In this document: positions 510 to 48,072 of the stretch, one piece after another
Position numbering within the stretch: position 1 is the stretch's first letter
Layout: each line of letters begins with the position of its first letter
Assembly: GCA_030651035.1 (NCBI GenBank)
Contig: JAUSCK010000293.1
Location: 12,973 to 76,972, forward strand
Source of the DNA: Elusimicrobiota bacterium
GTDB lineage: Bacteria; Elusimicrobiota; Elusimicrobia; Elusimicrobiales; UBA9959
Length of the DNA: 64,000 nucleotides
Reading direction: 5' to 3'
Position numbers and translations under genes: made by a program
Notes under the pieces: model-generated
What the model saw: only the letters and a program-made list of their open reading frames with translations
The model's database searches: none
What the model was told of the DNA's origin: nothing

Positions 510-1958
510 ATGAAAATATATCCTGCCATTCTTTTTACTGCGGTGGCCCTTGCGCGCTGCAATCCCGCACTGTCCGCCAACGGCGGGGATATCGGCGTCT
601 CTGAGGCGGAATCGGTTCTGGCTGTTAATTCCTGCATGGGGAATATATGGCCCGGATATAAAATAGAAAAACCTATTCTAATCTACTTTGAAGACTTGCG
701 CCGCCTTGCGCTTATATCGCCCCTGAACCCGCCTGAAGGCTTCTTTTTATGTTCTTCTAGAGGGAAATTTCCCGTTTACTGCAAGGACGGGGAATTTTCC
801 GACATACGCTCAAATTTTTCCATTTCTTATAAGCTAAACGGCGCTGATGTGACTTTTTACAGGTTGGCCAGCATTCTCAATGTTGATGCAGGGAAAGACC
901 TGCTGTTCCATGAGAATTTCCATGAATTCCAGTGGGGGAAGTTCCGTTCCCCGACAGCGTATTTTACCCCGTACTCTCCGGAGCCGGCAGACGAGGCTTT
1001 TTACAGGCTTGAGAACAAGGCACTTTTGAGCGCTCTTTTGTCGCAGGGCAGGGAAAGGTTAGAAAGGATCTCTGACTTTATAACTATCCGGGAGTATAGG
1101 CGGCGCACTATCAACTCCAAAAACCTTGCACGTGAGAATTTCAAGGAGCGCGTGGAAGGATCGGCTGAATATGTCGGCCGGATGGCGGTTGTGCTGCCTT
1201 GCGTTAAAAACAGGGGGAATAGCCGTGTTTTCCCCTTTATCGCCAGGGACTCTCTGTTCCTCGGCGAAACGTTCAGCAACGGCGAAAATTTTTATTTCAG
1301 CGGCCTGCTCCAGATGGCCATCCTGGACGCTCTGCGTACCCCCTGGAAAAGCCGGCTTGAAGCGGGAGAAACCATATACGGTATATTTAAAGAATATTTC
1401 CCCGGGACGGGACCGAAGCTGTCCGTTTTGAAGAAAAAATACGGTTATGCGGCGGTTCTGGCAAGGGCGACGGAAGCGGGGGAGAATTCCGCGCGAAAAC
1501 GGTCCGGCGCGGAGGGGAAAGCTTTCGACGGACCGGCGGTCATAGTTACCGTCCCCGCCGCGGCGCGCGGTGCCGCCGGGCCGCAATCCCACGGCGAGTT
1601 TCGGGTGCTCGCTGACGGAAGGACTTTTTATTTATCCGCCAGGCTGGAAGTTTCTGAAAAGGGCGGGCTCTACCTGTTCAGCGAAAACCTCCCCATGATC
1701 ATGGGCAGGTCAAAGAAACCGGTAAAAGCTGGAAGGAGCGAGATCTTCCCCAACCGGTACGAGATCTCCGCCGGGGAACTTTCAGAGCTGCATCTCAAGC
1801 TCAACGGCAGGACTTCGCCCCTGCCCGAAAAAGAGATGACTTTTAACGCAATAGAATTGCAAGGCAAAGGCTTCACCTTAAATTCCACCCTGCCGGGCCG
1901 CGCATGGAGGTCCGGCAACAAACTCTCCATTGAATTTGATAACCAAGAAAGCAAATAA
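510..1958 (+). CDS. exported hypothetical protein with HExxH motif (possible Zn-metallopeptidase)
   Basis: 482-aa ORF. The N-terminus MKIYPAILFTAVALARC is signal-peptide-like. It contains HENFHEF (HExxH). Long antisense ORFs here are shadows. Confidence 0.55.
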   Translation: MKIYPAILFTAVALARCNPALSANGGDIGVSEAESVLAVNSCMGNIWPGYKIEKPILIYFEDLRRLALISPLNPPEGFFLCSSRGKFPVYCKDGEFSDIRSNFSISYKLNGADVTFYRLASILNVDAGKDLLFHENFHEFQWGKFRSPTAYFTPYSPEPADEAFYRLENKALLSALLSQGRERLERISDFITIREYRRRTINSKNLARENFKERVEGSAEYVGRMAVVLPCVKNRGNSRVFPFIARDSLFLGETFSNGENFYFSGLLQMAILDALRTPWKSRLEAGETIYGIFKEYFPGTGPKLSVLKKKYGYAAVLARATEAGENSARKRSGAEGKAFDGPAVIVTVPAAARGAAGPQSHGEFRVLADGRTFYLSARLEVSEKGGLYLFSENLPMIMGRSKKPVKAGRSEIFPNRYEISAGELSELHLKLNGRTSPLPEKEMTFNAIELQGKGFTLNSTLPGRAWRSGNKLSIEFDNQESK

Positions 1959-2131
1959 CAGATGCCCCGCCCCTGCACGGCTGCACCCTTTGCGAAATGG
2001 GGCCCAAGTGTGGGTAGGTCTAACGGCACTTCCACAGGCAAGAGTTGTCAGCTAAACTTAGATTGTAGTCCTTGTAATTCGGGGGATTGGCCCCGGAGTA
2101 TCCACGACCGGACCTTAATCCGGTGTATCCA

Positions 2132-2170
2132 GGGAAAGCGCTTATAATCACCGCGCTTTCCCTTTTTTAT
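2132..2170 (+). terminator. intrinsic terminator
   Basis: GGGAAAGCGC (2132-2141) pairs perfectly with GCGCTTTCCC (2153-2162) and is followed by TTTTTTATTT. Confidence 0.65.
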
Positions 2171-2433: not shown

Positions 2434-4023
2434 ATGAGGCTGTTAAACCGTTTTACCGGGCGTTTCGCCACCGTAGTTAAAAGTTTAACTCTGGTGGCGA
2501 TTGCTTTTTTTATCTGGCTATTATTTACCCGGGGAAAAGAACAGATGACCAATCATAATCTAAATGCGGCCTTCATAAAATACCAAGCCGCGTCTTCATA
2601 CGACCCATTAAAGATCCAGTTCTCTCCGGAGTATGTATTCCTGGAAAATATATATAGTTCTCTGCTCGAAACCAGTATCAACGGTGAAATAGTTTCAGGC
2701 CTGGCGGAAAGGTTTGATTGGGTCGGCACGGAGCTTCACTTCAGGATGAGAGAAGGCCTCAAGACTATTGACGGCCATCCAATAACGGCCCGGGATGCGG
2801 AAGCGTCTTTTAAGCGTGTATTGCTGCTTCAAGGCGGCACCCACACGGACCTGGCGGATATGGTGTGCCCCGGGAAACCCTTGAAACACCTGGACGACCC
2901 CTGCGCCGGGATGGAAGTGCGCGATGATGGCGCCACCCTTGTCTTAAAACTCAAAAAGAAAAACGTCGCTTTATTAAAAACCTTCACGTCGCTGGATCTT
3001 GCGGTCATCCCGGTGAACTCGCTCGACCCAAAAACCCTCGCCATAGCCGATTACCGCAACACGTCCGGCCCATACTATGTGGAGCATGACGATCCGGAGG
3101 GAAAGATCAAGCTGGCAGCGAACCCGGCACACTATCACTTCAGCAAACGTATCCCGCAGACCGTGCAGTTGGTCCCCGCAGGAAAAAATGGCATCCGTGA
3201 ATCTTTGGAGCTATTCGATCAGGGGAAGGTCGATCACATAATGTCATGTGATAAAGCTAAGCCCGAGATATTAATGGAGTATGCCAATACTCATAAGCGG
3301 GATGTTGATCTGCATACGACCTCGCCCTTCAATCTTCATATGATCGCTTTTACCAGGAAAGGCGTTTCCAGGTTCAGCGAAGAGGAAAGGGTTAGGATAG
3401 GGTATGGATTAAGGCGGATATATTTGACTCGCGCCCTGCATATCCCCGGCATGGAGGAGGCGCAGCAGATGGTCCCTCCTTTCAGCACGGAAATGCTTAC
3501 GGAAGAGCAACTCTCAAAGATCAATTCTATCAGGAAACAGGCCCAGGACACGGAAGTTATTCTGCAGAAAATACTCGCCTGGAATCTAAGCATCGGCAAC
3601 TTATACGCGGAAGACACCAACGCACTGAAGAAATATTTCCCGAACATGCGGATCGAAATCGGCAAAAGCGTTCCCTCGCTTACGGATTTTAAAAAAACCG
3701 GCATCGAGGAGCCCGACCTGATGTTCGTGACCATAGATATGGGCTTTGAGGAAAGCGTCGGTCGTATGTCTTATACGACCAATGCCGGGCTCTTCTACTC
3801 GCCGGGCATGGATGTAAAGGAGTGGGTCAGCAGGTATATGGCCACCGAAGATAAGAATCAAAGAATCGCCATGGCGCGGAATATTCACTATGAAACGCTG
3901 GCCCATGCTTGTTCTATTCCTATGGTGTGGTCTCCCTATGCGGCCATAGTCAGGAAACCCTGGCGGATGGACTTTTCAAAGATATACCCCAGCAGTTATC
4001 TATGGCGAATACATCGCGATTAA
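2434..4023 (+). CDS. membrane-anchored solute-binding protein, ABC family-5 (peptide/nickel-type) fold
   Basis: 529 aa with an N-terminal TM segment. The segment GEIVSGLAERFDWVGTELHFRMREGLKTIDGHPITARDAEASFKRVL resembles the conserved N-lobe of SBP_bac_5 proteins. Confidence 0.6.
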   Translation: MRLLNRFTGRFATVVKSLTLVAIAFFIWLLFTRGKEQMTNHNLNAAFIKYQAASSYDPLKIQFSPEYVFLENIYSSLLETSINGEIVSGLAERFDWVGTELHFRMREGLKTIDGHPITARDAEASFKRVLLLQGGTHTDLADMVCPGKPLKHLDDPCAGMEVRDDGATLVLKLKKKNVALLKTFTSLDLAVIPVNSLDPKTLAIADYRNTSGPYYVEHDDPEGKIKLAANPAHYHFSKRIPQTVQLVPAGKNGIRESLELFDQGKVDHIMSCDKAKPEILMEYANTHKRDVDLHTTSPFNLHMIAFTRKGVSRFSEEERVRIGYGLRRIYLTRALHIPGMEEAQQMVPPFSTEMLTEEQLSKINSIRKQAQDTEVILQKILAWNLSIGNLYAEDTNALKKYFPNMRIEIGKSVPSLTDFKKTGIEEPDLMFVTIDMGFEESVGRMSYTTNAGLFYSPGMDVKEWVSRYMATEDKNQRIAMARNIHYETLAHACSIPMVWSPYAAIVRKPWRMDFSKIYPSSYLWRIHRD

Positions 4024-24475: not shown

Positions 24476-24640
24476 ATGCTCAGGTGTTCATTGATCCTGG
24501 TAATCGGCTTGGGAGCAGTTTTCTGCCTACTCAAGCGGGATCCGGATGCGGGATTTTTTCTCTTTGGTTCATCGCTGCCGCTTGTATTTGCCGGGCTCGT
24601 TCTTCAGGCCTTTAGGAAAAGGAGGTGCCCGGAGCTATGA
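24476..24640 (+). CDS. small membrane protein (54 aa)
   Basis: ATG preceded by AGGAAGAGG. Two hydrophobic segments. The stop overlaps the next ATG (ATGA). Below the ORF-track size cutoff. Confidence 0.4.
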   Translation: MLRCSLILVIGLGAVFCLLKRDPDAGFFLFGSSLPLVFAGLVLQAFRKRRCPEL

Positions 24641-25911
24641 GGGGTAATGACCCGCTTCTGCTGAAGAAGAATCTTGCCGCGGTCAAAGCCGGGGAGTGGG
24701 GCTTTGCCGAAGCCGCGGCGATCATTGCTTTCTACAACGACGCGAAGGACTTCGCGGGCCTGCGCGGCTTCAGCCGGTCTTTGCTTGCGCGAGAGGATCT
24801 CCAGAAGCTTGACGGGCATGAAGACTTCGTCGCGTACATGGGGATAGTTGCGGATAGTTATTTAAGCGACACGGCTGCGCTTCTCTCCGATGGCGAGAGC
24901 TTTTTGAAAAAGTACCCGGCGAGCGACATGTTCGAGGCGGTAAAATTGCTGATGGAAGGCGCGATCACGCCGGCGCGCCTGCCGGGGGTCGCCGTTTCCC
25001 CGCCCGTGGCCGCTGGCCCCGGGCCTTGCGGACAGCCGCATGTGACCGAGAGGCTTCTAAGCCGGGCGGAGGCCTTCGCGCGCCGCGCCCATGGCGCACA
25101 GCGCTACGGCGCCTACCCCTACGCCAAGCATCTGGAGGACACCGTCAGGATCCTGGGCAGGTTCCTCAACCAGGACACGGCGTTGTTCTGCGCGGCCTGG
25201 CTGCACGATTGTATCGAGGATACGCAGACCGGCGCGGATGCGCTCCGCGCCGAGTTCGGCGAGAGGATCGCCGGGCTTGTCCTCGCTGTGACGCGGCGCG
25301 CGACAGCCCTGGGGAAAGAAGAGCTTGGCGAGTATTATGCCAGGATCAAGGCGACCCCCGGCGCCGTCACGCTGAAGCTCGCCGACCGCATCGCCAATGT
25401 CGAGGCCTGCCTCAACGGGACGAACGCCGGCCAGCTTCTGAAATACCGGCAGCTGCACCCGCGGTTTTGCACGGCACTCCAGGGCTCCGGGAACGAGGCG
25501 CTCTGGGAGCACCTCCTGCTGGTTATCCGGCGCGATTCGCCGCTCTTCCTGAGGCAGGAGAGCTTTGCCTGTGTCGTCTGCGGGACTACGGCGGCTACCG
25601 TGACCCTGGTGCCGGCCGGCTCCCCCATGCTTGGCTCCATAGTGTCGCCGGGATTCCTGATCGAAGGCTTCATGGGCAGCGCGCTCAGCGGAGGCTTGAA
25701 GTCTGTTGATGCGGCCTTGGCCGCCCTCAAGGGGCGCGATCTCGAGGCCCTTCGAAAGATCTGCTGGGAGGCCGGCTGCTTCGAGTGTCATGTGTGCCGG
25801 CGCGTCTACTGCCTGCGCCACTGGAACACCAGGGTCGAGTTCGATGATGGCTTTTACGACTGCACCCGCGGCACTTGCCCCGACGGCCACACCCAGCTTC
25901 TGGATGATTGA
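24637..25911 (+). CDS. RelA/SpoT-type HD-domain protein with Cys-rich C-terminal domain
   Basis: AHGAQRYGAYPYAKHLEDTV...AAWLHDCIEDT is an HD hydrolase signature. The C-terminus carries CVVCG, CFECHVCRRVYCLRHW and CTRGTCPDGH. Confidence 0.65.
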   Translation: MRGNDPLLLKKNLAAVKAGEWGFAEAAAIIAFYNDAKDFAGLRGFSRSLLAREDLQKLDGHEDFVAYMGIVADSYLSDTAALLSDGESFLKKYPASDMFEAVKLLMEGAITPARLPGVAVSPPVAAGPGPCGQPHVTERLLSRAEAFARRAHGAQRYGAYPYAKHLEDTVRILGRFLNQDTALFCAAWLHDCIEDTQTGADALRAEFGERIAGLVLAVTRRATALGKEELGEYYARIKATPGAVTLKLADRIANVEACLNGTNAGQLLKYRQLHPRFCTALQGSGNEALWEHLLLVIRRDSPLFLRQESFACVVCGTTAATVTLVPAGSPMLGSIVSPGFLIEGFMGSALSGGLKSVDAALAALKGRDLEALRKICWEAGCFECHVCRRVYCLRHWNTRVEFDDGFYDCTRGTCPDGHTQLLDD

Positions 25912-26829: not shown

Positions 26830-27418
26830 TTACGGGGGTGAACTCCCGGCCTTCCCGCCACAAATCAGGCCATTTAAAGGTTTCAGCCACAGAGCGGGAC
26901 ACCCCCTCCAGGTGGGGGGGCTTCCTGGAAGATACGGCCGTCGGCAAAGTGGTTCTGGAAGCGGACAAACGCTTTAAAACTATAACCAGCGGCCTTGACC
27001 TAAACACTTATAAAGACATCCGGCCCGCTACCCGGGAACATGTCCCCGATTTCCTGACCGTCAGCGAAAGAGCGCTCCTTTCGGCCGGTCATAATACGGA
27101 CTGGGTAAAGACCAGGTTCTGGTTCTATCCTGATTCCATTGAAGTCCAGACCGATAAGACCAAACATTTTGCCAGGATAATAAACCCTCACTTTTTAGCT
27201 TATGCCGAGCGCAGCAGGGACGACTTTGCCTCTTCCGATGAGTTCGAGAAAAATAAAAAGCTCTGCTGCTGCCCGCGATAAGGAAGAACATCGACGACCT
27301 GAACAGCAGCTTCGACTATTATGCGGGCGCTTTTTCCGAATACGTGGAACTGGTAACCGTCGGACGGCTGATGGACAATGCCAACTGGACCCGCGGGTTG
27401 ATTACGAAGCTCTGCTAG
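26799..27418 (+). pseudogene. frameshifted gene remnant, unknown family
   Basis: Protein-like sequence ...DFASSDEFEKNKK ends at 27281. It resumes in another frame as ...IRKNIDDLNSSFDYYAGAFSEYVELVTVGRLMDNANW up to TAG 27416-27418. The junction lies at the run aaaaataaaaag. No convincing start codon. Confidence 0.4.
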
Positions 27419-27924
27419 TGCCGCCTAAAGAGCTATGCTTATCAGGCGGCCGAAGCCATAGAGCCCGCCCCGGCCGACGATTAACCCAAACGCTCCCCCT
27501 ACTCCCATCACGCCCGGCGATAACCGGGCGCAAAGGGCTTTTTTTAAATTGAAAGAAATACGCCGATTTTTTTGTATTATCACGAAATAGCAGGAAAGGG
27601 AGCTTTTCCTGAAAAATTTTTAAGCAGCGGAAAGAGGGCCGGCGGCCGGGAGAGGTGTTCGAGATAGCGCTGGATGAAATGTCGCCGCAAAAAGCGGAGG
27701 ACTTCGCCGTCCACCACCTGCCCACCACCAATATGCTGGCCGAGCTTCAGAAGGACTGCGGCGTAAAAGTGTTGATAATAGCGGTGCAGGTCCTGACGCT
27801 GCCGTCCGAATTGTCCTGCGTCCTGTCGGAGCCCATGGCCAAAGCCGTCCTCGAAGCGGCGTAAATGGTCACAAAAGAACTCAAAGCGGAGCTGTAAAGG
27901 TCATCCCCGGACCGCGGCTGCCGC

Positions 27925-28300
27925 GCACAAAGCGAGAGCCCCCGATGAACGGGGGCTCTTCACCTGGCACACGGGCCAGTAACCGCATTGGGGAGCCGGG
28001 GAGCCGACAGGCACTGAACGCGCCCGAAGGGCCGGAACACCCGCCCGGGGGCCGCCAAACGCGGGCCGAACCGGGGACCCCGGGGAACCGCCCCGCCAGA
28101 AGCGGGCCACGGACCGGAGAACCGCGCCGAAACCACCGCACCGAGACCAACTCGACCGCACACCGCACACCGCGCAGACCGGGCCCGACCGCACCAACCA
28201 AACCGCACCGCACACACCGCGCACACGACCGCCGCACACCGCAACCGCGGGGCCCGCGACCACACCGACCGGCGCAACCACTTGAAGAGAGCGAGACTAC
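27925..28300 (-). ncRNA. candidate orphan non-coding transcript, nearly adenine-free (G/U/C-only)
   Basis: Bounded by a consensus promoter (28335-28307) and a 10-bp GC hairpin (27934-27960) followed by GCUUUGUG. The + strand 28016-28281 has a single T (28152). GGUGUGCGG-type motifs are repeated. Confidence 0.5.
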
Positions 28301-28306
28301 ATTTCG

Positions 28307-28335
28307 AGTATAACAGAGGAAACTTGACTTGTCAA
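28307..28335 (-). promoter_or_regulatory. sigma-70 promoter, near-consensus
   Basis: Minus strand reads TTGACA (28335-28330), a 17-nt spacer, then TATACT (28312-28307). A likely start G lies near 28300. Confidence 0.7.
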
Positions 28336-28445: not shown

Positions 28446-29375
28446 TCAATGCTTAGCGAGGGCGGCTTTATATACCGACCACAGCCTGGCGGCGGTGTGG
28501 GTGGGCTGGCCGTAGGGGCTGCCGGGCAGGGACGCCCAGATATTATTCAGCTTGCCGAGGGCGGATGCAAAATTTTTATAATCGGAGGACCTGAGCACAA
28601 CATTGTAGGCGCCGGCGCGGCGAAAAATTTCTACCGCGGCTTTATCCTGGCTGGGCGGCGTGAAGTCGGCAAGGCCGAGATCCGGGGCCAGGCCGTCCCA
28701 GGTCCTGGAGAGGAACTGGTAGCGCCCGGCCGCGTCGGAACAGAGTTTGCCGGCGCATTTGCGCTTGCGCGGGTGGTCGGCATAGCTTTCGAAGGTGGCG
28801 TGGGTGAAAATATAGTTATAGGCATCGGTGGTTCCCTCGGCGTAGGCGAGGGTGTCCAGGAAAGCCCTTACGTTCCTGGGCAGTTCCCAGGCGCCGCCGG
28901 CCGAGCTGGAGGAAACGTACATCATGTAAATATAACCGCGGGTAAATTGGCAGCCGGGCAGGGGCGCCGCGAGGTCCACTATCATATGCTCGCCCTTAAA
29001 ACCGGGCTTAGCCGAAGCTTTGTAAAGCGTTTGCGGGGCGAGGGCGCATTTGCCGCTTCCCTCGCTCAGCGTCCCGTCATCGGCTTCGGAGAGCCTGAGG
29101 AAAGCCGCGTCCTTCCCTATATAAACGAAGTGCTCTTCCGTACCTTTATTCTCGCCGGGCCATTCGAAGCCGGGCTCATTATTGTTCGGGGGCAGGTATT
29201 GCTCTGCTTCCGTCAGCCCGTCGGCGCGGACCAGCTGTACGGCAGGGAGCGGCGAGGAAACCGTATTATCCGCGCCGTTGGCGCGCAGGAGTTCGTCAAA
29301 AGCCTGGGCCGAAGCGCAGAGGGGCGCGGCCAGGGTAATGAAAGCTGTAAGGGCGGCCGCGAATGTCTTCCTCAT
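28446..29375 (-). CDS. exported lambda-lysozyme-like (GH104-type) muramidase/transglycosylase domain protein
   Basis: Start at internal ATG 29375 (MRKTFAAALTAFITLAAPLCASAQA signal peptide). C-terminal FLDTLAYAEGT...ADHPRK...SDAAGRYQFLSRTWD resembles the phage-lambda R-type lysozyme core. Confidence 0.65.
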   Translation of the reverse strand: MRKTFAAALTAFITLAAPLCASAQAFDELLRANGADNTVSSPLPAVQLVRADGLTEAEQYLPPNNNEPGFEWPGENKGTEEHFVYIGKDAAFLRLSEADDGTLSEGSGKCALAPQTLYKASAKPGFKGEHMIVDLAAPLPGCQFTRGYIYMMYVSSSSAGGAWELPRNVRAFLDTLAYAEGTTDAYNYIFTHATFESYADHPRKRKCAGKLCSDAAGRYQFLSRTWDGLAPDLGLADFTPPSQDKAAVEIFRRAGAYNVVLRSSDYKNFASALGKLNNIWASLPGSPYGQPTHTAARLWSVYKAALAKH

Positions 29376-29463
29376 ATTTATATTATTGCAGGAGGAAGCG
29401 GCGGGGTGAAGGGCCATGCGGCCCTGGCGGGGATAGGCCTTTAGGGCAGGACGCGGACAGAGG

Positions 29464-37800: not shown

Positions 37801-38331
37801 GTAATTGGACCCGGTCCGCTGGGCTACGAACGGGGCCAGCGCCGTGCCCACGATGATGGCAATGTAGGTGAACATCACCAGCAGGCTGTTGGAACGGGAA
37901 AGCTCGTCCCGCTCCACCAGTTCCGGCACTATACCGTATTTCGAGGGGCTGAACACCGCGCTGTGGGTGGCCATCAGGAAAAGGACCAAATACAGCCCCA
38001 GCTCGCTTTTCAGCATAAAAGCCGCGACGCCGCACAGCATTACCGCCAGCTCCGCGAATTTACAGACTACGATTATCGTTCTTTTGGAATACTTATCGGC
38101 CAGCGCCCCGGCCGCGGCGGAGAAGAGCAGGAAAGGCAGCACGAAGAAAGCGCTGCCCGTGGCCACTATCCGGTTGGTCTGCCCCGCGCCCAATATCCCT
38201 ATCAGGAAAAAGATCACGAAAAGCTTGAACATGTTGTCGTTAAGCGCACCCAGGAACTGCGTGGCGTTGAACCAGCTGAAGGAGCGGTCTTGTATCTTTT
38301 CTTCGGTCATAAAATATCCCCTTAGCTTCAA
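34894..38331 (-). CDS. tripartite fusion: MFS lysophospholipid-transporter-like + PlsC-type acyltransferase + AMP-forming acyl-ACP/CoA synthetase (LplT/Aas-like)
   Basis: 1145 aa. N-terminal ~12-TM MFS. Acyltransferase motif LLVCNHISYIDA...FAEGALTRTG. AMP-binding motifs IFSSGSTGAPKGV, YGATE and GWYRTGD. Confidence 0.8.
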   Translation of the reverse strand: MKLRGYFMTEEKIQDRSFSWFNATQFLGALNDNMFKLFVIFFLIGILGAGQTNRIVATGSAFFVLPFLLFSAAAGALADKYSKRTIIVVCKFAELAVMLCGVAAFMLKSELGLYLVLFLMATHSAVFSPSKYGIVPELVERDELSRSNSLLVMFTYIAIIVGTALAPFVAQRTGSNYVAAQVFCVLIAAAGVLSAFMIKSTPPADAGKKMSVFFVSDIWRTLGSIKGDKYLLQAVLSSAYFTMLGAYLQLNMIPYGIAHLGLSQETSGYLFFVAAVGIGFGAMAAGKLSGRDIEFGIIPLGALLLTIASVSLNFLPASIWLVCPMIFLAGMGAGLFIVPVDSFVQFRAPLAQRGEILAASNFLGWVGVLIASGLVFLNTVLGFSAGQGFVMMGLLTLALTIVSFKVLPDFLLRFITLVITRLVYNIKVKDIENVPLEGPALLVCNHISYIDALLLVATQQRRLRFIMTSDIYEGWAFFTPLFKLMGCIPINMKDPPKKIIASLQAARQAMDDGFLVCIFAEGALTRTGMLREFRKGFTKIVKNTNYPIIPVYIGGAWGTFTSYYHGKFVKKLAGTFRYPVSVLFGKPLPASSGAGEVRLAVMELSCDYFNGRKSERGSLGRSFVETARGNWGLDIMSDTTGKKLTYGRALTAALLLGSALKEKTRGQDMIGILLPASAGGALANISVTMSGKVPVNLNYTVSKEAFASAIEQCRIRTIITSRAFMEKMSALSLPENAAVYLEDLTAGISGGRKLAAALTAKFAPAGALLRERGFKADDTATVIFSSGSTGAPKGVELSHHNIQSNIESLRIVFDLGDGDNICSALPLFHSLGYTASLWYPLLGGVPVSYHMNPLEAAAVAGLARENRSTMLFATPTLLMLYMHRAKKEDFAALRYVIVGAEKMKPKLADLFEKKFGVRPLEGYGATELAPVAALSVPHAGRDPDEFQTGWKEGSVGLPLPGVAMKVVDLDTGAYLPAGQEGLLLVKGPNVMTGYLGQPGLTAEALKDGWYRTGDVARIDEDGFVCITDRLSRFSKIGGEMVPHLAVEEALQRGLGKIEPVVAVTGVPDERRGERLVVLHTPEAGEAAAMHALLAASTLPNLWKPAADSYYRIDAFPILGTGKLDLKALKQKAMELSGAGGAAEKT

Positions 38332-39936: not shown

Positions 39937-42450
<2,514 letters not shown>

Positions 42451-42559: not shown

Positions 42560-45028
<2,469 letters not shown>

Positions 45029-45076
45029 CTAACTCCTGTAAGTAATCTTAAAATTTGAATAAAAAAACTTCCTAAA

Positions 45077-45165
45077 TTCACCGCTGAGCCGCAGAGGTCG
45101 CGGAGAACCGCATTTTTAAATCTTCTTCTCTCTTAACTCCGCGACCTCTGCGCCTCAGCGGTGAA
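45077..45165. repeat. palindromic REP/MITE-like element, copy 1
   Basis: Arms TTCACCGCTGAGCCGCAGAGGTCGCGGAGAAC and CTCCGCGACCTCTGCGCCTCAGCGGTGAA around an AT-rich loop. A near-identical element lies at 51211-51293. Confidence 0.7.
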
Positions 45166-45173
45166 CTCTTCTC

Positions 45174-45479
45174 TTAAATGCTGTTCGCAGTCTTTATGGC
45201 TTTTATCCACGGCCGCTTGAAATACTTGTTAAGTCCTTTCACCAGCACCGAGCTGCGCAGGGCAAGCTCGCTGGCGGCGGTTGCGGAGGAAGGTTTAACG
45301 AGTATAACGCCCTTATCCACGCCCAACAGCACGCAGTGTTCGCCCAGGCGGCCCATCTCTTTCTTCCAGACCGCTTCCAGAAGGGCCAGGCGGTCCAGGT
45401 CGGATCCTCCCATCAACTTCCAGGAAGAGCAGACCTCGTTCGCCTTGGTCCAGTTGGCTTTCTTCCGTTCAAGGAACAT
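45174..45479 (-). CDS. DUF721-family small protein (family that includes DciA-type helicase-loading factors)
   Basis: 101 aa in the classic position between dnaN and gyrB. The pattern W..IVG..LA.HT.P......G.L.V.V.SS.WA.EL is approximated by WKKEMGRLGEHCVLLGVDKGVILVKPSSATAASEL. Confidence 0.6.
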   Translation of the reverse strand: MFLERKKANWTKANEVCSSWKLMGGSDLDRLALLEAVWKKEMGRLGEHCVLLGVDKGVILVKPSSATAASELALRSSVLVKGLNKYFKRPWIKAIKTANSI

Positions 45480-45480
45480 C

Positions 45481-46719: not shown

Positions 46720-48072
46720 CTACCCCTGGTTATTAACAGTCTTTATCTTTGAAATTATCTGGTTCAGAGTCTCGTTAAAATAGGGGTCGGACTGTACCAG
46801 GTGGCTGATCTTGTCTTTGGCATAGATCACCGTAGCGTGGTCGCGGTCGAAGGCCTCACCTATGTCGGTCTGGGTCATGTCCGTAAGGGTGCAGGCCAGG
46901 TACATAGCCACCTGCCGCGGGAAGGCGATATTTTCGGTGCGCTTCTTGGAATTAAAATCTTTAAGCTCTACGGCGTACTTATCCGACACCACGCGCTTTA
47001 TCAGTTCAACCTCTACCTTCTTGTTCTCGGAATCCTGGTCGCTGATATGGTCCTTTATTATTTCCCGCACGGCGTCTATGGACGGCTGCTGGCCCATTTT
47101 GGCGGCGAAATTCCCCACGTTTATAAGGCTGCCTTCCAGCTCCCTGATGCTTTTTTTTACATTTTCTGCGATGAATGTTATAACGTCGTCAGGGATCGCG
47201 TACTTGTGCTGGTCCCGCTTCTGGCGCAGTATGGCCACGCGGGTCTCGAAATCTGGGATCTTTATGTCGGCCACCACTCCGGAAAGGAAGCGCGAGATGA
47301 GGCGCTGCCCCAGGGCGAGCTCCCGCGGCGGCCGGTCGGAGGTGACGACGATCTGCTTCTTGGACTCGAAGAGCGAGTTGAAGGTGTAGAAGAATTCCTC
47401 TTCGCTGCGCTCCTTGTTGACCAGGAACTGAATGTCGTCCAGCAGCAGGCAGTCGAGTTTGCGGTACTTGCTGCGGAACTGCTCCGTGGCGCCGCCGCGC
47501 ACGGAGTCGATGTATTCGTTCACGAAATTTTCGCTGGCGGTGTAGAGGATGCGCGCGGAGGAGTTGTTCTTGAAGATGCCGTGGGCGATGGCGTGCAGCA
47601 GGTGGGTCTTGCCCAGGCCCGGTGCGCTGTAGATGAAGAAGGGGTTGGTCTGGCCCGGAGTCTTAGCCACTCCCTCCGCCGAGGCGAAGGCGAAGCGGTT
47701 GGACGTGCCCATGATGAAGCTCTCAAAGGTGTAATTGGGGTTGAAGGAATAATAATTAGCGGGCAGAGCGAGCGACGCCGGGGTGGCCTTGGACTGCGGC
47801 ACCGGCTCAGTCTGGGCCAGCGACATGGAATAATTAATTTTAAGGGTTTTCCCGGTGAACCGGGTCAGCAGAGAGATTATTTTCTCCTCGTAACGCTGTT
47901 TTACCGTGTTATAAATTATCTCATTGGGAACTTCAAGTTTAAATGTGTCATCCTCTATGACTAGCGGCTTTATCTGGCTCAACCAAAGGTCTAATGCCTC
48001 GGAACCGATGTCGGTTTCAAGATTTTTGATCACTTCCTGCCAGATTTCTTTGATATCTGTTAAGTTATCCAC
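46720..48072 (-). CDS. dnaA: chromosomal replication initiator DnaA
   Basis: 450 aa with a GTG start. Walker A GLGKTHLLHAI, DDIQFL, and C-terminal DNA-binding helix RQVAMYL...DHATVIYA. Confidence 0.97.
   Translation of the reverse strand: MDNLTDIKEIWQEVIKNLETDIGSEALDLWLSQIKPLVIEDDTFKLEVPNEIIYNTVKQRYEEKIISLLTRFTGKTLKINYSMSLAQTEPVPQSKATPASLALPANYYSFNPNYTFESFIMGTSNRFAFASAEGVAKTPGQTNPFFIYSAPGLGKTHLLHAIAHGIFKNNSSARILYTASENFVNEYIDSVRGGATEQFRSKYRKLDCLLLDDIQFLVNKERSEEEFFYTFNSLFESKKQIVVTSDRPPRELALGQRLISRFLSGVVADIKIPDFETRVAILRQKRDQHKYAIPDDVITFIAENVKKSIRELEGSLINVGNFAAKMGQQPSIDAVREIIKDHISDQDSENKKVEVELIKRVVSDKYAVELKDFNSKKRTENIAFPRQVAMYLACTLTDMTQTDIGEAFDRDHATVIYAKDKISHLVQSDPYFNETLNQIISKIKTVNNQG

Follow-up and report, generated by a model that had tools for sequence, protein, structure and literature searches.

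This report concerns a 64,000-nt stretch of an Elusimicrobiota contig (JAUSCK010000293.1; hereafter the window) and, within it, a short intergenic element on the minus strand, between the gene for an exported muramidase and what looks like a decayed hydrogenase-maturation gene. The element opens with a near-consensus promoter, closes with an intrinsic terminator, and is predicted to specify an RNA of a few hundred nucleotides from whose core adenine is almost missing (Table 1). Overall, we consider it very likely that the element is a non-coding RNA (ncRNA) gene with boundaries of its own, that it is conserved and under purifying selection, and that it belongs to no catalogued family. That the base composition of this RNA is unprecedented is strongly supported.

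Table 1. Features of the RNA gene and its surroundings (window positions, unless a related locus is named)
Feature	Position	Strand	Basis
GH104-family exported muramidase gene, conserved upstream neighbour	28446..29417	-	source annotation names
Upstream A/T-rich UP-like tract with motif CGACGTRAAAAA	28340..28380	-	recurs in most homologs
-35 TTGACA (28335-28330) within near-palindrome TTGACAAGTCAA	28324..28335	-	invariant 12-mer, 18/18 homologs
Extended -10 TGTTATACT	28307..28315	-	11/12 promoter positions match, TG present
Predicted start (~28300, G) and CU-rich leader GUAGUCUCGCUCUCUUCAAGU	28280..28300	-	inferred from distance to -10
Adenine-free RNA core, one A at 28152	28016..28281	-	base count; homologous cores 0.4-8.5% A
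P1 5' strand GGUUGCGCCGG	28269..28279	-	invariant in 14/18 members
Hypervariable G/U-rich array of YGGU units	28131..28268	-	pooled motif counts
Two GGGCCC boxes, mutually pairing	28250-28255, 28181-28186	-	consensus fold; L036, L033
P1 3' strand UCGGCGCGGUU	28120..28130	-	alignment
Conserved 3' domain (short GC-rich hairpins, loops rich in pyrimidines; contains GGCCCUUCGG)	27980..28119	-	alignment A3
Penultimate hairpin CUGGC-loop-GCCAG	27964..27979	-	most members, loops variable
Intrinsic terminator GUGAAGAGCCCCCG-loop-CGGGGGCUCUCGCUUU	27929..27963	-	sequence and alignment
Inverted repeats 3' of terminator	L013, 200-260; L017, ~415-480; L015, ~135-226	sense	

Counted on the plus strand, the 266 nt at the heart of the element (28016-28281) comprise 124 C, 77 G, 64 A and a single T, and the minus-strand RNA thus carries a single A there, just as an earlier note on this DNA, made from the letters alone, had described. 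Once runs overlapping this tract are set aside, the longest run in the window with no more than one T is 63 nt, and no other base has a comparable run, the maximum being 67 nt. The probability of finding at most one T in 266 nt is 1e-26 at the T frequency of the window and 1.5e-14 with T set at 12.5%; corrected for all windows/positions and bases, it is 4e-9. Local GC content reaches 0.75 within the tract and AT skew reaches 0.92.

A sigma-70-type promoter points into the tract on the minus strand, where the -35 hexamer is followed, after a 17-nt spacer, by TATACT (28312-28307); 11 of 12 positions match, and a TG extended -10 is present besides. At the far end, the RNA strand of 27934-27960 reads AGAGCCCCCG-UUCAU-CGGGGGCUCU and then CGCUUUGUG, a hairpin whose stem, first described as 10 bp, is lengthened by the alignment to about 15 pairs. 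No comparable promoter is directed into the tract from the plus strand, and the hairpin would sit at the start of a plus-strand transcript; the transcribed strand is therefore the minus strand, from which we predict an RNA of about 372 nt, running from ~28300 (as placed by the distance to the -10) to ~27929. The promoter combines a perfect -35, an extended -10 and an A/T tract; the RNA is probably abundant. The earlier note had seen here a near-perfect promoter, a downstream GC hairpin and an independent minus-strand unit for an A-depleted RNA, and the homologs described below bear it out: promoter, terminator, domain order and adenine depletion are conserved in all 18.

Homologs of the RNA gene

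The first homologs came from loci fetched around relatives of the upstream muramidase (GH104) gene. An A-depleted tract lies immediately downstream of the GH104 relative in L002, L003 and L004, and L003 and L004 contain runs of 201-290 nt with one A. A 23-nt pattern drawn from a block conserved among the first four sequences, scanned against metagenomes, returned 13 loci, 12 of them genuine homologs and one a chance match in coding DNA. Six further members lie on contigs with other GH104 homologs, and either their version of the pattern is altered or the scan did not return them; the family is thus larger than the yield of a single metagenome pattern scan, which under-samples it. A divergent copy, L035, was detected with nhmmer. 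The family now stands at 18 distinct full-length members (339-420 nt) and three fragments, from Elusimicrobiota genome and metagenome contigs, all of them metagenome-assembled genomes (MAGs) or metagenomes and many closely related to one another. Among the loci recovered, the RNA gene is found only in one clade of Elusimicrobiota. Plasmid and phage sequences gave no blastn match, and pattern scans of viral contigs gave nothing or one chance match in coding DNA, so that no mark of a mobile element, plasmid or phage was found; short-pattern matches in L020 (viral) and L008 (metagenome) were discarded as chance matches in coding DNA.

Compared with the window, the 3' 200 nt of the RNA show 68-79% identity in species in which identity over the GH104 coding sequence is 64-76%, and this nominally intergenic DNA is thus conserved on a par with a protein gene. 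The promoter is common to all members, as GGGCCTTGACAAGTCAA...CTGYTATAsT (TTGACAAGTCAA...TGnTATAsT, with an A/T tract before it). Its 12-mer, TTGAC-AA-GTCAA, is present in one copy per locus, always at the RNA gene, and the -10 is kept as CTG(T/C)TATA(C/G)T throughout. The invariant AGTCAA half of the 12-mer falls within the spacer, which suggests a candidate operator or, alternatively, that the whole near-palindrome could serve as a bidirectional -35. In most homologs, CCGACGT(G/A)AAAAA and an ensuing A/T tract are also found, 10-45 nt ahead of the -35; in L003 the motif is AAAAATATTTT, at about -59 to -46, which we take to fit the distal UP-element consensus. In 17 members the two terminator arms show no variation at all, while the loop between them varies; L035 alone deviates slightly. 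The family therefore has what an independent small RNA (sRNA) gene has, its own conserved sigma-70-type promoter and intrinsic terminator.

The composition is inherited along with these signals. Over a core that runs from the GCGCCG of P1, the helix closing the first domain, to 75 nt short of the 3' end, adenine makes up 0.4-2.4% in 13 members, 3.7-4.1% in L002, L034 and L035 (4.1% in L035), and 8.5% in L036, whose GH104 has diverged furthest; flanking DNA has 16-23%. The same cores are 40-46% G, 28-37% C and 22-26% U, and the adenines that remain lie mostly in the leader of about 20 nt and in the final ~70 nt of the RNA. Adenine depletion is a family trait, graded rather than absolute. Homologs of ordinary composition, a check that the earlier note had proposed, did not turn up: every core is A-starved, though to differing degrees.

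No described family accounts for these sequences, in agreement with what had been supposed from the window alone. Searched whole at gathering thresholds, the window yields one match in Rfam 15, a 2'-dG-II riboswitch at 2067-2137, and none at the RNA gene; permissive scans with the window element, L036 and L035 gave chance-level matches only (E >= 0.02, far under gathering scores). Literature searches on adenine-free RNAs and on ncRNAs of Elusimicrobia brought up nothing relevant, and we know of no described RNA family that excludes one of the four bases. The family escaped detection on two counts: Rfam does not include it, and no protein relatives came up, the six-frame search described below being empty and no gene being called over the element in L001.

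Several individual loci deserve mention. The leader and array of L012 (543-947) resemble the L019 type, and its 3' half and downstream flank are identical to L003, so this locus may reflect recombination between RNA alleles or an assembly chimera. Long perfect inverted repeats (e.g. GGGGACAGGCTACTTTATT...AATAAAGTAGCCTGTCCCC) directly follow the RNA terminator on three metagenome contigs (Table 1). Of these contigs, L013 and L015 begin within the 3' domain of the RNA gene and L017 at the promoter; L014 begins within the repeat array.

Coding potential and architecture of the RNA

The six-frame translation of the tract contains four overlapping open reading frames (ORFs), three of them on the minus strand (155, 126 and 105 aa) and one on the plus strand (122 aa), and 28016-28281 is free of stops in all six frames, the flanking stops lying at or outside its edges (TGA at 28015, TGA at 28283, and a UAG in the leader). 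A low-complexity protein, Pro/Arg-rich if read from the plus strand or Gly/Val/Cys/Arg-rich if read from the minus strand, would suit ORFs of 105-155 aa in four frames. However, such ORFs are the necessary outcome of the base composition, as the earlier note had argued and the translations confirm, and T is missing at third codon positions too. Of the pairwise gap runs, only 20% have a length divisible by 3, indels of 1 and 2 nt being dominant; ATG is absent from both strands in most members, and that of the 122-aa ORF lies, unconserved, in the variable terminator loop. The tract ORFs have no Pfam matches, their concatenated six-frame translation has no relatives among 5.8 billion proteins, and the codon-periodic conservation that would mark the 122-aa ORF as a real gene was looked for and not found. 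Lacking a conserved frame, a conserved start and protein homologs, the protein-coding reading is effectively refuted, and we give it a negligible chance. The indels, the unconserved ATG and the compensatory helix changes described below uphold the earlier view that selection acts on the nucleic acid and not on a protein. A start-stop mini-ORF at the 5' end, AUGUAG, was likewise set aside as unconserved (GAGCAG in L012, L017 and L019).

As an RNA, the family has a constant order of domains: leader, array domain closed by P1, 3' GC hairpins and terminator. The structure model is provisional, above all in the array, where the alignment is unreliable. The leader follows the family consensus UGUAGUCCUG(A/C)UCU(C)UUUAAG, holds most of the 5' adenines, and in the consensus fold is not paired with the 3' end. 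A pairing of its CUCUUC with GAAGAG of the terminator 5' arm was considered and dropped; judged by eye, it is present in the window and not kept across members. Next comes the 5' strand of P1, which can form 11 pairs with (C/U)CGGCGCGGUU located 100-180 nt downstream. The array between the two strands is 91-173 nt long and built of units of 5-14 nt. Pooled over 17 members, GCGGU occurs 123 times in the arrays versus 14.6 expected from composition, and CGGU 177 times versus 31; GG-to-GG distances are most often 5 nt, the YGGU period being 5-6 nt. Members with near-identical 3' halves (L003/L004/L018; L007/L011) differ by unit-sized indels in the array, and several contigs break within it. Pairing of UGGU with the tRNA 3'-ACCA was rejected as unsupported, CGGU being the commoner unit.

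The same counts bear on a second reading, in which the locus is a cis-acting DNA or R-loop/G-quadruplex (G4) element, as at Neisseria pilE; the earlier note had offered this, along with a G4-forming RNA. The strong promoter and a non-template strand with 46% G, positive GC skew and many GG doublets speak for it, but GGG is depleted in the arrays to 0.3 of expectation (70 versus 232, 17 members pooled), six members contain no canonical G3+ motif, and their G4Hunter maxima (1.04-1.40) lie at or below those of dinucleotide shuffles (1.41-1.76). In addition, the G runs of the 3' domain stand opposite C runs in helices, there is neither a recombination cassette nor a conserved downstream gene, and the conserved terminator and compensatory 3' domain imply that the RNA product is what is selected. 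We therefore regard an R-loop or G4 element as highly improbable, and the canonical G4 and R-loop proposals of the earlier note find no support. Two-tetrad or pUG-like folds may form; (GU)n runs occur in L016 and L027 and are not a family feature.

The 3' domain also carries evidence for an RNA fold. A consensus of 58 pairs, made up of its hairpins, the penultimate hairpin and the terminator, is paired in 97.7% of cells, with six pairs (28 cells) changed on both sides; many of the 18 members are close kin, and these counts include inherited changes. The covariation score is 0.128; column shuffles give 0.079, none of 500 attaining the observed value, and sliding the partners gives 0.05-0.076. 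Most of the 58 pairs never vary and the structure was taken from the alignment on which it was tested, so this support is modest. For example, a U-A to C-G exchange distinguishes GGUCUGC-loop-GCAGGGC from GGCCCGC-loop-GCGGGGC. The penultimate stem has variants, CCGGC/GCCGG in L034 and UGGCC/GGCCG in L007. Compensatory substitutions are what a structured ncRNA displays, and the structure and conservation of the 3' domain point to an RNA product rather than to the act of transcription. The member of most ordinary composition, L036, folds better than shuffled sequences (z = -2.7), and its ensemble contains P1 with pairing probabilities of 0.94-0.98 as well as the box-box helix (P2).

Paired positions of the 3' domain consist of G (48%), C (44%), U (6%) and A (1.3%), the paired A mostly opposite U. 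Among unpaired positions pyrimidines make up 74% (C 38%, U 36%), with G at 23% and A at 3%. Structured RNAs usually have A-rich loops, with unpaired A serving in GNRA loops, A-minor contacts and protein recognition; the A-poor, pyrimidine-rich loops of this family are the reverse.

Neighbouring genes and the wider window

The upstream gene has no Pfam match, and its close homologs from Elusimicrobiota MAGs are annotated as glycoside hydrolase family 104 muramidases, which gives a family to what had earlier been called a lysozyme-like exported neighbour. In every locus that reaches far enough, including seven found by the RNA pattern alone, the GH104 gene and its terminator directly precede the RNA promoter in the same orientation; L035 is the exception. 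Its RNA copy (1117-1536, plus strand) lies about 1 kb upstream of GH104, beside HTH and response-regulator genes, and has extra hairpins in the 3' domain. More distant GH104 genes, at 57-62% identity in L005, L006, L029 and L031, have no RNA nearby. The linkage may simply be inherited synteny, with no functional connection evident. The order in other genomes is gyrA-marC-GH104-RNA, and the gene downstream of the RNA differs by locus (HycI fragment, TldD, DUF6159, TPR, flavodoxin).

This setting is chromosomal. The genes dnaA (46720-48072), gyrB (42560-45022) and gyrA (39937-42450) all lie on the minus strand, the cumulative GC skew has its minimum at about 38-44 kb, and the window probably spans the replication origin region; the RNA gene appears to be origin-proximal and co-oriented with dnaA-gyrB-gyrA. 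An AT-rich gap (45023-45480) separates gyrB from the next ORF. On the other side of the RNA, a 69-aa ORF (27655-27864, plus strand) aligns with HycI/hydrogenase maturation protease profiles over their C-terminal half alone (60-123 of 130 positions in Pfam), and no ORF is supported in the ~800 nt before it. The region 26830-27864 (plus strand) looks like a decayed hydrogenase-maturation gene beside the RNA terminator, and the gene fragment already suspected there is thereby named.

A partner enzyme was also sought. Neither the neighbours nor the large ORFs of the window, nor the called genes of 14 related loci, include a reverse transcriptase (RT), so that the adjacent RT of ncRNAs of the retron, DRT or DGR type is missing. 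Genes for Cas proteins, integrases or defence are likewise missing from the vicinity, both in the window and in related loci, and PADLOC found no defence system, its matches being only to a generic TPR-repeat protein. The earlier statement that no RT, Cas or integrase partner adjoins the element thus extends to the window and to its relatives. These data weigh on the proposal, made in the earlier note as well, that the RNA is a template or decoy for a polymerase encoded elsewhere (an RT, a primase-polymerase, or RNA polymerase acting on RNA), with a complement free of T/U. A templating constraint could exclude one base, and the array is repetitive, but no RT or polymerase gene adjoins in about 18 loci, the gene is a syntenic part of the core genome and not of a defence island, and the depletion is graded (0.4-8.5%) instead of absolute. 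Such a role is hard to credit.

Three further features of the window stand apart from the RNA gene. The riboswitch at 2067-2137 (plus strand) is a 2'-dG-II purine aptamer (RF03165; 84.7 bits, E = 1e-20); an ORF that contains a family-5 solute-binding-protein domain (2434-4023) lies about 300 nt downstream of it. The second-longest T-poor run, at 38097-38159 on the plus strand (57 nt T-free, 63 nt if one T is allowed), is located close to the 5' end of a minus-strand gene for a 1145-aa MFS-acyltransferase-AMP-ligase fusion. The longest A-free run outside the RNA gene (24968-25031, 64 nt) lies inside a 428-aa ORF (24625-25911, plus strand) with an N-terminal region, a RelA/SpoT-type HD hydrolase domain and a Cys-rich C-terminus.

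Possible function and relation to known RNAs

What might such an RNA do? Our tentative proposal, which could well be wrong, is that it would be an abundant, stable and translationally inert RNA acting in trans by multivalent protein binding. The 3' domain and terminator would form a specific binding or stability module, and the YGGU array would provide an accessory multivalent platform, following the sponge or scaffold logic of CsrB/RsmZ with another motif; the protein sponge suggested in the earlier note is plausible in this sense. In an RNA with 40-46% G, any unpaired A would tend to create Shine-Dalgarno-like (GGAG), GGA, ARN or A/U-rich sites, the A-containing sites used by ribosomes, CsrA-type and Hfq-type proteins and RNase E-type nucleases. 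By excluding A, a very abundant RNA would then avoid translation, persist for long and bind its own partner specifically. A bolder possibility, and a doubtful one, is that adenine exclusion is itself the selected trait. The family would then be a natural, essentially three-letter (G/C/U) structured RNA that is invisible to A-dependent machinery (the ribosome, Hfq/CsrA-type proteins, A/U-directed RNases, toxins) or that has deliberately degenerate G-C/G-U pairing, in which case slippery multivalent helices could self-associate via GC-only palindromes such as GGGCCC and CCCGGG.

Several observations weigh against the protein-binding scheme. Almost no YGGU array is left in L035, and that of L034 is short; L035 nonetheless keeps the promoter, leader, 3' domain, terminator and A-poverty, so the core function cannot reside in the array, whose variation could reflect neutral slippage. 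Moreover, the minimum-energy fold of L036 pairs the repeats mostly with each other, leaving few exposed. The window RNA folds no better than shuffled sequences (z = +0.64; other strand -0.70), and the predicted ensembles of A-free members lack P1. Since every G can pair with every pyrimidine, the folding landscape of an A-free RNA is likely to be degenerate; such folds are uninformative, and the structure model consequently rests on conservation, limited covariation and L036. The proposed reason for A-avoidance, finally, is argued from how A-dependent recognition of RNA works in general.

The composition as a whole might instead be a neutral by-product, arising from slippage of A-less short repeats combined with transcription-associated, strand-biased mutation. 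The unit-sized indels between near-identical strains are in keeping with this and make the A-poverty of the array partly self-propagating, and the A level differs between lineages. On the other hand, the non-repetitive 3' domain is A-poor as well (in paired and unpaired positions alike), L035 is A-poor without an array, cytosine, which deaminates more readily than any other base when its strand is exposed, shows no depletion (28-37%), and the leader and 3' end of the same transcript retain a normal A content. We thus find a purely mutational origin very unlikely.

The leader invites two further readings. It could belong to a base-pairing sRNA in which UCCUGAUCUCUUU of the leader, probably single-stranded, or else the C-rich loops would supply the seed that pairs with purine-rich ribosome-binding sites of target mRNAs, the A-free body serving stability. 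The leader is conserved, lies outside P1 and is among the few parts of ordinary composition; UCUCUU-type sequence could pair with AGGAGG through wobble, and the loops are rich in C and U. However, an RNA of 339-420 nt with a large conserved structured domain is atypical of seed-type sRNAs, and the leader varies at several seed positions (e.g. GCUCUCUAUAU versus GAUCUUUUAAU); no target has come to light, though no search aimed at one was made. We consider this unlikely.

The second reading is that the RNA works on the transcription machinery, through a boxA leader that would load Nus factors (for rRNA-type antitermination and for co-transcriptional chaperoning of an RNA whose folding landscape is degenerate, or as a decoy) or as an RNA polymerase binder like 6S or Ms1. 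The rrn boxA is UGCUCUUUA, with the consensus GYTCTTTAANA (PMC2724277, PMC5725501), and the leaders of L016 (UGCUCUUUUCAAG) and L035 (UGAUCUUUAUAG) resemble it; compared by eye, leaders agree at 8-9 specified positions (e.g. GCUCUUUUCAA in L016, UCUCUUUAAGU in L023), against a consensus that is gammaproteobacterial and may not be that of the phylum. A GU-rich sequence follows the leader, and the UP-like and consensus promoter elements resemble those of rRNA promoters. Against this, the boxA match is imperfect, with A at the second position in most members and extra C/U insertions, and NusA contacts, as described in the literature, require A in the RNA (AUU for the spacer of E. coli/lambda, AUA for boxC of M. 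tuberculosis). For the polymerase-binding variant, Rfam gives no 6S match and there is no 5'-3' closing stem. A role of either kind seems improbable to us.

Should selection indeed act on adenine exclusion, no earlier RNA family would have been defined by a missing nucleotide, and a new design principle for abundant bacterial RNAs would be indicated. Adaptive depletion would offer a very abundant RNA a way to escape translation, decay and global RNA-binding proteins, and would provide a natural test case for three-letter RNA folding. The gene is a candidate major regulatory RNA for Elusimicrobiota, a phylum with almost no characterised RNA biology, and composition-based scans can catch what homology pipelines miss.

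Among known systems, the likenesses are partial. Type III toxin-antitoxin RNAs have tandem repeats of about 36 nt with an endoribonuclease toxin gene directly downstream, whereas the units here are 5-14 nt and the downstream gene varies. Like 6S and Ms1, the RNA is encoded by a stand-alone gene, is expected to be abundant and has a size near that of Ms1, but 6S is about 180 nt with a closing stem, RF00013 gives no match at E <= 10, no central open-promoter-like bubble was identified, and the array and A-depletion have no counterpart there. GcvB also carries G/U-rich single-stranded sequence able to pair with C/A-rich targets; it is, however, about 200 nt long with a short G/U seed and normal A elsewhere, whereas some 270 nt of the window RNA are A-free and largely structured. 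The sRNA at the Neisseria pilE G4 shares a promoter that drives transcription through a G-rich non-template strand, but the present locus has no G3+ motif and no antigenic-variation locus, and here the RNA product itself is conserved and structured. With rRNA operons the gene has in common a consensus promoter with an A/T tract, a boxA-like leader followed by GU-rich sequence, and an origin-proximal position co-oriented with replication; its transcript ends, by contrast, at a terminator after about 370 nt, contains no rRNA, and matches boxA only imperfectly. The (G/U)AG repeats of trp leaders bound by TRAP are closer to the array, in that both present short G-containing triplets with a period of about 5 nt, suited to wrapping around an oligomeric protein, although the triplet here is the A-less GGU and there is neither an attenuator context nor a downstream regulated gene. 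The CsrB/RsmZ/CrcZ group differs in its motif, theirs being GGA (typically placed in hairpin loops) or A-rich CA and ours YGGU in a core with one A and no GGA for CsrA/RsmA, and in that half of the window RNA is non-repetitive conserved structure and L035 is nearly arrayless. Nonetheless, both are chromosomal RNAs of a few hundred nucleotides with their own promoter and terminator, a strong promoter with conserved upstream sequence, and an array of many short-motif copies whose number varies among relatives.

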